A stretch of 64,000 nucleotides of DNA from Escherichia coli (GCF_003018115.1 NZ_CP027457.1), one strand, 5' to 3'; shown: positions 36,901 to 42,900, counted from the stretch's first letter. A program made the numbers.

Positions 36901-39900
36901 ATTCCTATTGGTATTACAATGAATGGATAATAGCAATGCGTATTAACCATGGCAATAGCAAAACGTGTTTTGACCATCAATACGCAAGCGTATAAATTAA
37001 AACTTATGAAAAAAGAAACTCTTGCTGATCGCTTAAACCTAGCGATGGAACAATCTGGGATGTCTCAAGGCGCTCTTGCAAAGGCGTCTGGCGTAGCTCA
37101 ACCCACAATCTGGAGACTGACAAGCGGCAACGCGCGCGGCTCAACAAAAATTGTTGAAATAGCGAATGCATTGGGTGTTCGAACAGAGTGGCTCTCATCA
37201 GGCATAGGCCCGATGAGAAATGACGGTCAACAATCAGGGAAGCCTACTGTCAACCATTCCAAATACTTCAAGATTGACGTTCTTGATATAGAAGTGAGTG
37301 CCGGGCCGGGAGTCATCAACCGTGAGTTTGTAGAAGTCCTACGCTCGGTTGAGTACTCGTTTGACGATGCTCGTCACATGTTCGATGGCAGGAAGGCGGA
37401 AAATATCCGCATCATTAACGTACGTGGTGACAGCATGTCAGGAACAATCGAACCAGGTGATCTGCTGTTCGTTGATATCACGGTTAAATCTTTCGACGGT
37501 GATGGCATCTATGCGTTTCTGTACGACGACACAGCCCATGTAAAGCGCCTGCAAATGATGAAGGATAAGCTGTTGGTTATCTCTGATAACAAGAGCTACT
37601 CACCGTGGGACCCGATCGAGAAAGACGAGATGAACCGGGTGTTCATTTTTGGGAAAGTCATCGGGAGCATGCCGCAGACCTACAGGAAGCATGGGTAGGT
37701 AGTATGTAAAGAATTACCTTTGGTTGATTTGTAATAGCTACCGATTACGTTATCGGTAGCTATAAGAAATTTTTATGTCTTTAACTGTGTTTATTTATTC
37801 AATACTAGTTGGACTATAGCAATGAAAGATAACAGACAAAAAGTCGTTCATTATAAAAAAGCAGTAATCCCACACAGCAAATCATCATTACAAAACATAC
37901 TACTTAGTATTATAGGTGAGGGCGGCGTTGCAGAAAAAGTACTTAGTAGACAAGAAAAAATAACACCTTCAGATGAAAATTCGGGGTATCGTTTCTTAAA
38001 TAAAAGCGACACATACAAAACTATACTTTTTGGGCAACTGGTTTTATTTGAAAAAGACAAAAGCCAGTCTCTATTAGAGCTTAGTGATAATGTTAAATTT
38101 TATGACATTAACTCCATCACGTCTAATGATATAATTATTGATGGAGATAAACGTAGTGACAAAAAAAGAGAGTTTGTAGATTCAATTTTATATTTTGGTG
38201 TACTAAACAACCATGTCATGATCGTTCAATCCACATCGCTTCGAGCAAGGGAGCTTGAGGCGCATTTGAATTGGCTAATTAATACATTCACAGATGAAAA
38301 AGAATCTGTGTTAATGCTTCAAGATAAGCCATCCGAAGAAACGATGAAAAAAATGGAGAAAGCACCAGCCAAGAGCATAAAAATTGGTGGATTACCCATT
38401 ACTTCAGAAGTTAAAAATTCAGAGAACCAAACACCCTCCTTTTCAAATGGTTCGGTGAAGACAATAAAATACCGCCCAATAGGGAAAGGAGGTGCGCTAC
38501 TAAAAGCATTTTTTGGCGATAACTGGGCAAATGATATAAACATTAAAGATTCATTAGATGAGGCCAATTTACAAGTAAGCCTCGAGATTACATACTTCAG
38601 AAAAACAAATGATAGCGGTCAAGCTGTTATAGACAGTATTGCTACCTCACTACGACATCTAGATGAGGATGATATTAGCATCAAACTTCAAGGCGGTGGG
38701 GAAATAACGGGAAAAGAGATAAAATTATCCGGAAAAATTAGCGTTGAACATAACAATGGCATTATTGATGAAAATGATTTATTCTTAAAAATGCATAAGT
38801 GGCTGTTCTCAAAACTTGATGCCGGAGAATTGGTTGCAAAATAACCTACCAAAAGGAGGGCGATAATGAAATCGAACATCATCCACCTTATTGGTATGTT
38901 GGTCTTCTATTTTGCTGGTTACTTTTTGTTCAAGTTAGCATTGGGCTATATTACACCGGGTGTTGTCCTAACAGCTCCGTGGGCTGTGGTTGGACTCATG
39001 CAATTGCCATTATCATATTGTATACAAGCCATTTTTAAGGCAAATGAGGCCAATGACCACTCGTCTTTAACCCCTAGTGAGGTTAGGCGATTAGTGCCAA
39101 TAGTCAAATCCAAGAGACTGAAATTGGTTTTATTATTAGCTTTCTATGTATTTTCAACTTTGTTTGTAATCTTGGGGTTAATAGCAAGCACAAATGATCA
39201 AGCCCTACTCTTCAGGGTCTTAAAAATTTCAGGTGGATTACTCTTTATTTCTCTCTATACCAGTGTATTCGTTCATAAAATAATGGTTGAGCTTCAAGAG
39301 TTTAAAGCGTTATTAAACCGAAGAGAATCAGAGAAGAAGGAAAGAGAGTCACTCCTTGATAGATTAAAATGACCCCCCCTCCCCGGCCGTCGTGCCGGGT
39401 TTTCTTTTGCCTCCCCTCATCACACACCGTTCAAAAAACCACCATAACCCCCGCTTCAGTTATCGCTATGCGATGCAAGTCACAAAATTAATTCCTTTTG
39501 CTATCAAACAGTTAATATCAAAATACATCAATCAATAGCAATAAGTATTGATATCACCAATAGCAATAGCTATTATTACCATGTCGCAACAACACAACGA
39601 TACGGCAACCACCTGATTCGCCGTTGCGATGACCGCTTAGATCCGCAGCTTGAATTTCAGCAGGCTCCGGGGAGTGCGAGGGGTGAAGCGGACGCGTGAA
39701 CGTCGGTGTGACCAGCTGAAATCAACTCAACACTTCATACCTCAGTCGCTTCAACGAGGCGGCTTAGTTATGACAACCGGCGGCCATCCACCGCCTGAAT
39801 ACGCGCAGAAGTCTCTATATGTTCAGCAGCCCAGCTTACGGGCAGGAGTTTTTATGGTTCATCAACATTACGGAACTCAGACCGTTAATCGCGGTGCCGT

Positions 39901-42900
39901 CCGGCCAGGTATGCTGGTTAAACACAAAGATGGTACCTGGACGGCATCAGCTAATTTGCGCGGTCGGCTTTACTTGCATCGCGGCATCGAACGAACGTAC
40001 ACAAAAGATTTGCTCGTGGAGGTTTACCTGAATGGTACTGGCGGTGGTCTGAGCCACTAACTACTCACTTGTTTGGGCCGTGTGGAGCCAAAGCAAATTC
40101 AAGGTTGTAGATACTCCCATCAGGGGCTTTGAAATCAACCTCAAACCGAGATGGCGGATTGAATGGATCGAGTACATTTTCTGCTACGCATGTAGATCTC
40201 CAATTGATATGGCCTTTGCCAAGCGAGCGAGATTCCCACCAAGCTCTCCAGGTCTGGTCTTGCGGTTGATCACTCCCCTTTTCCCTTACATACCAATGAT
40301 TCTTTTTCGACTGCTTACCCATTTCTGCGGTTGGGTACATCGGAGAAGACTTTAACTTATCAATCAGCATTCTAGACACCTTATTTATCAGATTTTGAGC
40401 AAGACATAGTGTGATCCAACATTTTGATTAATCAAGCGAGTTCATTCAAACAACTATGCAGTTAACGCACTGTCTGGATCCGCACATCAAAATTTCAGGA
40501 GTTTATCCATGAACGCTTATTACATTCAGGATCGTCTTGAGGCTCAGAGCTGGGCGCGTCACTACCAGCAGATCGCCCGTGAAGAGAAAGAGGCAGAACT
40601 GGCAGACGACATGGAAAAAGGCCTGCCCCAGCACCTGTTTGAATCACTCTGCATCGATCATTTGCAACGCCACGGGGCCAGCAAAAAAGCCATTACCCGT
40701 GCGTTTGATGACGATGTTGAGTTTCAGGAGCGCATGGCAGAACACATCCGGTACATGGTTGAAACCATTGCTCACCACCAGGTTGATATTGATTCAGAGG
40801 TATAAAACGGATGAGTACAGCACTCGCAACGCTGGCTGGGAAGCTGGCTGAACGTGTCGGCATGGATTCTGTCGACCCACAGGAACTGATCACCACTCTT
40901 CGCCAGACAGCATTTAAAGGCGATGCCAGCGATGCGCAGTTCATCGCATTGCTGATCGTCGCCAACCAATACGGCCTTAATCCGTGGACGAAAGAAATTT
41001 ACGCCTTCCCCGATAAGCAGAACGGCATCGTTCCGGTGGTGGGCGTTGATGGCTGGTCCCGCATCATCAACGAAAACCAGCAGTTTGACGGCATGGACTT
41101 TGAACAGGACAACGAATCCTGCACATGCCGGATTTACCGCAAAGACCGCAATCATCCGATCTGCGTTACCGAGTGGATGGATGAATGCCGCCGCGAACCA
41201 TTCAAAACCCGCGAAGGCAGAGAAATCACGGGGCCGTGGCAGTCGCATCCCAAACGGATGTTACGGCATAAAGCCATGATTCAGTGTGCCCGTCTCGCCT
41301 TCGGATTTGCTGGTATCTATGACAAGGATGAAGCCGAGCGCATTGTCGAAAATACCGCATACACTGCAGAACGTCAGCCGGAACGCGACATCACTCCGGT
41401 TAACGATGAAACCATGCAGGAGATTAACACTCTGCTGATTGCCCTGGATAAAACATGGGATGACGACTTATTGCCGCTCTGTTCCCAGATATTTCGCCGC
41501 GACATTCGCGCATCGTCAGAACTGACACAGGCCGAAGCAGTGAAAGCTCTTGGATTCCTGAAACAGAAAGCCACTGAGCAGAAGGTGGCAGCATGACACC
41601 GTACATTATCCTGCAGCGTACCGGGATCGACGTGAGAGCTGTCGAACAGGGGGATGATGCATGGCACAAATTACGGCTCGGCGTCATCACCGCTTCAGAA
41701 GTTCACAACGTGATAGCAAAGCCCCGATCAGGAAAGAAGTGGCCTGACATGAAAATGTCCTACTTCCACACCCTGCTGGCTGAGGTTTGCACCGGTGTGG
41801 CTCCGGAAGTTAATGCTAAGGCGCTGGCCTGGGGAAAACAGTACGAGAACGACGCCAGAACCCTGTTTGAATTCACTTCCGGCGTGAATATTACTGAATC
41901 CCCGATCATCTATCGCGACGAAAGTATGCGCACCGCCTGCTCTCCCGATGGTTTATGCAGTGACGGCAACGGCCTTGAACTGAAATGCCCGTTTACCTCC
42001 CGGGATTTCATGAAATTCCGGCTCGGTGGTTTCGAGGCAATAAAATCGGCTTACATGGCCCAGGTGCAGTACAGCATGTGGGTGACGCGAAAAGATGCCT
42101 GGTACTTTGCCAACTATGACCCGCGCATGAAGCGTGAAGGCCTGCATTATGTCGTGATTGAGCGGAATGAAAAGTACATGGCGAGTTTTGACGAGATGGT
42201 GCCGGAGTTCATCGAAAAAATGGACGAGGCACTGGCTGAAATTGGTTTTGTATTTGGGGAGCAATGGCGATGACGCATCCTCACGATAATATCCGGGTAG
42301 GCGCGATCACTTTCGTCTACTCCGTTACAAAGCGAGGCTGGGTATTTCCCGGCCTTTCTGTTATCAGAAATCCACTGAAAGCACAGCGGCTGGCTGAGAA
42401 GATAAATAATAAACGGGAGGCGGTATGCACAAAGCATCTCCTGTTGAGTTAAGAACGAGTATTGAGATGGCACATAGCCTTGCTCAAATTGGAGTCAGGT
42501 TTGTGCCAATACCAGTAGAAACAGACGAAGAATTTCATACGTTAGCCACATCCCTTTCACAAAAGCTGGAAATGATGGTGGCGAAAGCAGAAGCAGAAGC
42601 AGATGAGAGAGACCAGGTATGACAACCACTGAATGCATTTTTCTGGCAGCGGGCTTCATATTCTGTGTGCTTATGCTTGCCGACATGGGGCTTGTTCAAT
42701 GACACCTCAGCAAGAAAACGCCCTTCGCAGCATTGCCCGTCAGGCTAATTCTGAAATCAAAAAAGCCAGACAGCATTTTCCGGATAAAAACGTCGATGAC
42801 ATTTGCCGTAGCGTACTAAAGAAGCACCGCGAAACGGTAACGCTGATGGGATTCACACCGACTCATTTAAGCCTGGCGATCGGCATGTTGAACGGCGTCT

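Follow-up and report, generated by a model that had tools for sequence, protein, structure and literature searches.

The question raised by the locus studied here is how the early-left operon of an Escherichia coli lambdoid prophage is organized when the genes expected between its leftward operators and promoter (OL/PL) and gam cannot be recognized. The sequence is a 64-kb window of E. coli (the whole stretch analysed; one strand, with window positions used throughout), and the part considered is the immunity and early-left region of the prophage, with the early-left operon on the plus strand. A preliminary description had noted two open reading frames (ORFs) in this interval, one in the position of N with an N-like arginine-rich motif (GVKRTRERR), and one convergent with it on the opposite strand that could be either an independently transcribed moron or spurious. 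Both ORFs are present as described, at 39650..40060 on the plus strand (TTG start, 136 aa, with a conceptual translation that includes RGVRGVKRTRERR) and at 40065..40379 on the minus strand (104 aa from GTG 40379), although the arginine-rich string lies outside any conserved frame. The interval from OL/PL to gam (40509) contains no further plausible gene; N, ral, sieB and cIII are thus missing, and the PL-proximal region is indeed atypical. The plus-strand ORF is identified here as kil behind a non-coding leader, and the antisense ORF as a real gene, called X, that is probably a moron.

The plus-strand ORF consists of an untranslated leader (39584-39853) joined in frame to a short gene of the KilR family, and the position previously assigned to N is actually occupied by the following gene:

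39854..40060, plus strand: kil, encoding a 68-aa KilR-family cell-division (FtsZ) inhibitor, as predicted from its family (RefSeq WP_000233584.1, the same 68-aa protein)

The ATG start codon at 39854 lies five nt downstream of a strong Shine-Dalgarno (SD) sequence, AGGAG (39844-39848). In profile searches the product matched phrog_294 over its full length (E=1.4e-36), which places the ORF in the Kil family and not in an N family, and it matched the NCBIfam model NF008465 'FtsZ inhibitor protein' with an alignment starting from Met 39854 (E=2e-16; the score of 59.6 bits is under the curated subfamily cut-off of 92). BLASTP against Rac KilR gave 34% identity over 65 aa, full length (E=2e-12), and precomputed Pfam tags mark kil homologues in related loci as PF27398 KilR. 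Homologues occupy the same early-left place in phi80, HK225, HK639, KO-TP1 and CobraSix. In the window kil is the first gene after PL, with gam-bet-exo later in the same operon. By membership of the KilR family the product would inhibit FtsZ; an FtsZ-dependent division block is known for Rac KilR (PMC5793797, PMC12482147), and Rac kilR is silenced by NusG/Rho, its derepression being toxic (PMC5793797).

The window Kil resembles Rac KilR and phi80 Kil in its length class (68 versus 73 aa), in aligning over the full length and in its early-left place upstream of the recombination genes, but differs in that kil comes first after PL with no N or terminator ahead of it. Its leader is unrelated to that of Rac kilR, which encodes the small RNA (sRNA) KilS; KilS was considered as a homologue of the leader and found not to be homologous. 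In Rac of E. coli K-12, KilS is annotated directly 5' of kilR (L137:4406-4503) and sieB lies on the strand opposite kilR, and in phi80 two mutually antisense ORFs, gp43 and gp42, are annotated just 5' of kil (L007:2806-3071). A 70-aa ORF at 39819-40031 was rejected as a shadow frame. The assignment of kil is in itself ordinary; it corrects a tempting mis-annotation, since some phage records annotate the long ORF, and 'Kil' forms of 96 and 139 aa are present in databases.

Could the plus-strand ORF nevertheless encode an atypical N-like antiterminator that uses GVKRTRERR? In the window the ORF comes first after PL and its frame is open from 39650, the motif is superficially like the arginine-rich motifs of N proteins, and the record of phage Perceval annotates the long ORF, but as Kil. 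Lambda N itself begins MDAQTRRRERRAEK. The codons for the motif, at about 39680-39706, fall within the leader, and in 11 of 31 distinct close variants an in-frame TAG cuts the motif off from ATG 39770 and kil, while in three more the motif is out of frame, so that the reading is broken in 14 of 31 near-identical relatives. A profile search with the residues encoded by 39650-39853 returned no N-family match (best E=0.09, to an unrelated family of undefined function), whereas a real N-like ORF from locus L016 scored phrog_271 at E=3e-6 in the same search; the N-terminal 68 aa thus lack a match to N, and the C-terminal 68 aa are KilR. Nor were nut sites found: no boxA (YGCTCTTWA, at most one mismatch) occurs between 39577 and 39853, and neither the leader nor the three-hairpin element (H1-H3) described below was detected a second time, as an R copy, anywhere in the window, including downstream of the rightward promoter PR (blastn-short; covariance model with filters off). 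The start codon would moreover be a TTG or GTG inside a G+C-rich structured RNA. An N-like product of this ORF is therefore highly improbable, and a lambda-type N antiterminator is refuted by sequence comparisons (the broken motif frame and the absence of N homology). As judged by the same comparisons, GVKRTRERR is a mere conceptual translation of G+C-rich non-coding leader RNA, and the phage of the window has no N.

The antisense ORF was examined for homologues and for its mode of evolution, and it corresponds to the following gene:

40065..40370, minus strand: gene X, encoding a 101-aa soluble, basic, Trp-rich protein, convergent with kil (PHROG 16212; RefSeq WP_000904075.1)

Its start is ATG 40370, served by the SD sequence AAGGTG (40382-40377), rather than GTG 40379; Met 40370 is where the alignment begins both for the PHROG profile and for all 17 homologues. 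The profile search suggested for this ORF gave a full-length match to phrog_16212 (E=1e-69), with residues 4-104 of the 104-aa ORF on profile positions 1-101 of 101. When 5.8 billion proteins were searched, homologues were obtained in 19 clusters, in Enterobacteriaceae only; they come from several genera, are 62-99% identical and share 34 invariant residues, and the exact X sequence is found on at least 1000 contigs, always under the name hypothetical. Among seven homologues the differences at codon positions 1, 2 and 3 number 392, 341 and 1111, with pN at 0.05-0.26, pS at 0.42-1.0 and, wherever dS can be measured, a dN/dS of 0.03-0.27. These values indicate that X is under strong purifying selection.

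That the antisense ORF is a chance open frame, a shadow of plus-strand sequence, might be argued from the small size of X, from the lack of database and fold relatives detailed below, and from a 91-aa plus-strand ORF (40080-40355) that is also open in the window. This ORF is, however, closed in the X homologues and matches no family, and was rejected as being itself a shadow frame. With the full-length PHROG match, the invariant residues, the excess of third-position changes and the low dN/dS all opposed to it, a spurious frame is scarcely credible, and the corresponding doubt in the preliminary description can be set aside.

The X protein has 101 aa, a pI of 8.8, five Trp residues and no hydrophobic segment. 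Searches of PDB, AFDB50 and BFVD with its AlphaFold model (pLDDT 76) gave no significant neighbour, and the protein has no match in Pfam, NCBIfam or, among defence systems, PADLOC-DB 2.0; Kil likewise has no match in PADLOC-DB 2.0. Searching 1.84 billion representatives and PDB by profile added nothing except one repeat protein, a metagenomic protein of 1110 aa (P0021) with ten copies of a motif like X residues 33-61 (SWxLWW..ILGTSGHIIW; summed E=1.5e-11). The pattern SWxxWW..LG..GHIxW, common to X and P0021, is the sole indication that X may belong to a wider domain family.

Comparison with the nearest relatives defined the segment that carries X, and its upstream sequence was inspected for expression signals:

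40061..40487, no strand assigned: segment absent from phages 4A7 and Perceval (three-way alignment; 4A7/Perceval annotation)
40377..40435, minus strand: putative expression signals of X (SD AAGGTG 40382-40377; -10 CACTAT 40411-40406; -35 TTGATT 40435-40430)

In 4A7 and Perceval a 75-nt spacer joins kil to gam, and in the window about 430 bp stand in its place. The window is 94-99% identical to these phages up to kil and again from the SD of gam, with identity falling already within the last ~60 nt of kil. X is absent from 16 of 16 related phage records, the full kil-X arrangement occurs in 27 of 5426 E. coli genomes as against about 2200 with the leader and kil, and about 5% of kil genes carry X when loci are fetched independently of X. 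The G+C content is 46% for X and 37% for its upstream region, compared with 51% for kil, 51% for gam and 53% for bet. The -35-like TTGATT lies inside a palindrome, TTGATTAATCAA (40424-40435), and homologous loci show partial conservation of CTTGATTAATCA and of the T/T of the -10.

Morons of lambdoid phages were reportedly described by Juhala et al. in 2000, and lambda bor is a moron transcribed against the surrounding lytic operon. X is like bor in being present in some and absent from other near-identical genomes, in its low G+C content, in having an SD sequence and a promoter-like site of its own, and in its orientation opposite to the operon that it interrupts. It differs in lacking its own terminator, in lying 4 nt from the kil stop codon, in forming the same junction with diverged kil alleles and in not being a membrane or surface protein. 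Since X appears to have its own weak promoter and to run opposite to the PL operon, as bor does, the best explanation is a moron architecture, and X is on balance probably an independently transcribed, free-standing moron. The corresponding suggestion in the preliminary description thus gains comparative backing from presence and absence among the nearest relatives, from the SD and promoter-like site, and from the lower G+C content.

Several points weigh against this explanation. The promoter-like site matches the -10 consensus at only 3 of 6 positions, has an 18-nt spacer and was not called by the consensus scan. A scan of the region gave no terminator-like hairpin between X and kil, whereas morons of the classic kind end in a terminator of their own. 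X is missing from all 50,697 phage records searched, which bears on its behaviour in viable phage. Lastly, the strict junction with kil, the pairing with a diverged Kil lineage and a fused structural model hint that X may be tied to Kil.

The evidence for such a tie was considered in turn. X and kil lie tail-to-tail with exactly 4 nt between their stop codons in 13 of 14 loci, including those from Enterobacter, Cronobacter and metagenomes, despite differences among the junctions in the 4 nt, in both stop codons and in the flanking codons, and despite variation in the genes on the other side of X (GamL/RecT/YqaJ, an RNase_T-type exonuclease and others). The Kil proteins encoded next to X fall into two deeply diverged lineages with a mutual identity of only 34-40%; in locus L011, X is 72-80% identical to the others and its Kil only 34-40%, and identities of X and Kil are uncorrelated (rho 0.17). 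When X was modelled by AlphaFold as a fusion, X-(GGGGS)6-Kil, the pLDDT was 77 and the pTM 0.49, and the pLDDT of X residues 1-10 rose from 48 to 86, giving X higher confidence than in the model of X alone; the fusion model, which comes without coordinates or an error map, cannot reveal an interface.

These observations, together with the lack of a terminator between the genes and the toxicity of KilR, which needs tight silencing (PMC5793797), would fit a dedicated partner of Kil: either an antidote or modulator protein, acting by binding Kil or by protecting FtsZ, or a convergent gene whose transcript reads through into kil and silences it as antisense RNA, so that kil-X would be a two-gene toxin-control cassette and not kil plus an unrelated moron. 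Against this, about 95% of kil genes are without X, so Kil can do without it. The one exception among the 14 loci, P0017, is the most divergent X and is tail-to-tail with an N-like gene and not with kil, and the pTM of the fusion is only 0.49 with no inter-domain error map. The adjacency could also stem from one old insertion carried along with kil as a recombination anchor, an alternative prompted by the fall in identity to 4A7 inside the kil 3' end, and the strong purifying selection on the X protein argues against a purely antisense-RNA role. A functional link between X and Kil is thus possible on these comparative grounds, and X as a dedicated Kil partner is an unlikely but serious competitor to the moron explanation. 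The P0017 arrangement was seen in L016:778-1011 (minus strand) and in a related NCBI contig, where P0017 is convergent, with no gap, with a short lambda-N-like ORF (MNAQERRRMRRAGK..., phrog_271).

The leader ahead of kil extends over about 270 nt (39584-39853) and comprises a 159-nt PL-proximal module followed by an element of three hairpins. The second of these parts has the clearer evidence of structure:

39736..39772, plus strand: hairpin H1, in which CAUACC pairs with GUUAUG (RNAalifold consensus of 35 diverse copies)
39779..39795, plus strand: hairpin H2, GGCGG-CCAUCCA-CCGCC
39829..39843, plus strand: hairpin H3, GCCC-AGCUUAC-GGGC, directly before the kil SD AGGAG (39844-39848)

Across the 35 diverse copies, 97% of the H1 cells are paired, and 7 pairs and 86 cells show changes on both sides, where shuffles give 28.6 and slid controls no more than 18. 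H2 is kept in 13 of 13 variant contexts obtained from an independent anchor, in one of them via a G-C to G-U change, and also in CobraSix and S9-5. H3 varies among copies as GCCC/GGGC, GCGC/GCGC and GCC/GGC, adjoins the SD of whichever gene is next and is present in the single-sequence minimum free energy fold; its pairs were not formally counted because their register differs between alignment rows. An exact search with a 24-nt core found the element on at least 120 IMG/VR contigs, and the independent anchor on 112; copies are present in loci L003, L006-L009, L017-L136 and L142-L232. Lambdoid phages have it ahead of their first delayed-early gene, be they N-type, put-type or N-less, and it usually comes directly after an intrinsic terminator (tL1A in phi80). 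The covariance model of the element (R1) finds a single copy in the window, and the element matches no Rfam family.

An AUG at 39770 opens an ORF (MTTGGHPPP...) that runs from 12 to more than 100 codons among the copies, its frame changing freely after the prolines. It could be used either for a regulatory leader peptide, with ribosomes stalling at the triple proline and C-rich RNA being shielded from Rho, or, in this phage, where it shares the frame of kil, for a 96-aa, N-terminally extended isoform of Kil. The start of the nonapeptide is very widespread and the part after PPP variable, a pattern consistent with a stall peptide. In two variants a 3-nt in-frame deletion leaves GG-x-PP intact, the phi80 record places a Rho-dependent terminator (tL1B) downstream, the 96-aa form is annotated in many database entries, and 28 of 31 close variants keep the AUG in the frame of kil. 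Leader-peptide/Rho attenuators with proline codons include mgtL and mgtP of Salmonella and tnaC of E. coli, which the window resembles in having a short ORF with consecutive Pro codons over C-rich RNA, a long 5' leader and a downstream gene whose output has to be kept low; in the window, unlike in these systems, the AUG sits in a covarying helix, and the frame is lost in some copies in which the helices are kept.

Since CAUACC pairs with GUUAUG, AUG 39770 is buried in the base of the H1 helix, and it has no good SD at normal spacing. Single-nt deletions break the frame in L170 and CobraSix, L232 has no AUG, and in L179 PPP has become PLP through a G-U-compatible change, while H2 is always kept. 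The KilR profile, for its part, begins at Met 39854, which has a strong SD. Use of AUG 39770 therefore seems quite unlikely, and translation of a stall peptide from it is possible but not favoured. Because the frame is lost in some copies and the helices are retained, we conclude from the pattern of variation that the conserved entity is the RNA element rather than the peptide.

The PL-proximal part of the leader is conserved in a different manner, and lies just downstream of the promoter:

39533..39576, plus strand: OL operators and PL promoter (-35 TTGATA 39548-39553, -10 TATTAT 39571-39576)
39584..39742, plus strand: PL-proximal untranslated leader module, with its most conserved core at about 39617-39742

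PL is the top promoter-like site of the region (10 of 12 in the consensus scan), and its transcript probably starts near 39583. The OL operator repeats and the rightward operators (OR) have AATAGCAAT in common, and the repeated CAATAGCAATA motif at OL is also present at OR, at 36929. Of 5426 complete E. coli genomes, 2209 have the 159-nt module at 95-99% identity, and it is never annotated. It is common to phages with at least three different operator sets; heteroimmune relatives are divergent upstream of the PL region and identical downstream, which places a mosaic boundary at or just after the transcript start.

The slot that the module fills, ahead of H1, holds other devices in other phages. 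In the put-type prophages L010, L158, L190 and L222 it contains put, about 24 nt ahead of H1, and in N-type phi80, KO-TP1 and S9-5 it contains nutL-N-tL1A; in N-type phi80, KO-TP1, S9-5, CobraSix and HK225 the three-hairpin element directly follows an intrinsic terminator (tL1A in the phi80 record). Phages of the window type have the 159-nt module there and no terminator. Three different modules thus precede one shared element, and the leader is by this token a positional analogue of an early antitermination module.

It follows that the 159-nt leader might be an early antitermination device, a put-like cis-acting RNA of unrelated sequence, an idea compatible with kil plus a moron. This would explain how the early-left operon of an N-less phage is expressed, and it accords with the occupation of the exact slot of putL and of nutL-N-tL1A, with a length about that of HK639-type put leaders, and with extreme conservation among heteroimmune phages, as for N modules. 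A terminator-like hairpin and T-run do lie inside the early-left operon (42935-42953, plus strand), before a TraR/DksA-like gene, xis and int; a second such hairpin and T-run lies within the early-right operon (33653-33628, minus strand). On the other hand, blastn-short against the HK022 and HK639 loci gave no similarity of the leader to put above 10-mers, and the put core pattern (GWCGAACGGCGCGWC..UAAACCAUGCGUCGG..GGCGGGYUCAGG..CGGCAAU) matches 33 other loci and not the window. There is no R copy after PR, while put and nut form L/R pairs; boxA, boxB and a protein are likewise wanting in comparison with HK022/HK639 put and lambda/phi80 nutL-N-tL1. The fold of the leader is no more stable than that of shuffles (z = -1.06, not significant), and the few polymorphisms of the module give no compensatory changes, being too little variation for a test. 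Rfam (E up to 1) matched nothing in 36000-44000. Phages of the window type also lack tL1A, and antitermination may be needless there. With no R copy, an antiterminator role for the leader is rated as unlikely, a little below a role of X as Kil partner and above the use of AUG 39770.

A working scheme for the locus can be proposed in which transcription from PL (~39583) would yield the ~270-nt untranslated leader and then kil as the first translated gene, with H1 hiding AUG 39770 and H3 sitting against the kil SD. A cassette of ~430 bp has replaced the normal 75-nt kil-gam spacer, bringing X on the opposite strand, where X is probably transcribed alone from its weak sigma-70-like promoter, toward PL. 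Such transcription would allow X to be made in the lysogen while PL is repressed, and with 4 nt and no terminator before kil the X transcript would have to run antisense into kil. After induction, transcription from PL would presumably collide with that of X. The X protein itself would be a soluble factor acting in trans, its role most likely being a benefit to the lysogen (exclusion or conflict) or containment of Kil toxicity.

The neighbouring features agree with an N-less lambdoid prophage of the Perceval/4A7 (Bievrevirus) type, to which the window prophage belongs. From 39382 to ~40025 the sequence is 87-95% identical to 16 phage records (the Perceval/4A7 group, Bievrevirus) and 100% identical to E. 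coli strain E9. The operon order is PL - kil - (X) - gam - bet - exo, and the flanking features are as follows:

36949-37698: cI
minus strand: cro
39382..39399, plus strand: intrinsic terminator closing the operon of cI, a 340-aa and a 168-aa gene, upstream of OL/PL (6-bp all-GC stem and T-run)
40509..40805, plus strand: gam, encoding a GamL-type RecBCD inhibitor, the next gene of the early-left operon (phrog_259, E=1e-60; RefSeq annotation)

In lambda, rexA and rexB are located between cI and OL/PL. The same position in the window (37822-39372, plus strand) contains two genes of very low G+C content ended by a strong terminator, one encoding 340 aa (35% G+C) and the other a 168-aa multi-span membrane protein (37%). 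Both products match only PHROGs that lack a function label, and neither has a match in PADLOC-DB 2.0. LF82_152, the Perceval homologue of the membrane protein, is the top-expressed gene of that prophage in lysogens, 81-fold over background (PMC9928086), and the two genes are a candidate lysogen-expressed exclusion or defence pair. The position of cII is taken, as in Rac, by a 181-aa YdaT-domain protein (36098-36643, minus strand; RefSeq 'toxin YdaT domain-containing protein'). Its gene begins 24 nt after cro, which leaves no room for a nutR- or putR-like site.

These results do not overturn known phage biology; they leave three compact unexplained features, X and the two leader RNAs, within 800 bp. 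One of the commonest prophage types of E. coli runs its early-left operon without N, with a conserved, unannotated leader in N's place. That leader includes a widespread structured RNA with solid covariation that is not in Rfam, and the sole consistent property of the orphan family X is its exact tail-to-tail junction with toxic kil. The further proposals that kil-X is a convergent toxin-control pair and that the leader comprises two undescribed cis-acting RNAs are not mutually exclusive, and jointly they are given a minor share of belief. Were the first true, an orphan-fold protein made from a promoter firing into kil would neutralise or time an FtsZ inhibitor. Were the second true, ~40% of E. 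coli genomes would have the PL-proximal module as a substitute for N/nut or put, and a covarying three-hairpin element would lie ahead of the first delayed-early gene whether the phage is N-type, put-type or N-less. Should X control Kil, or the leader RNAs act on elongation, the locus would offer compact and easily testable systems for the silencing of a prophage division poison and for N-independent early control.

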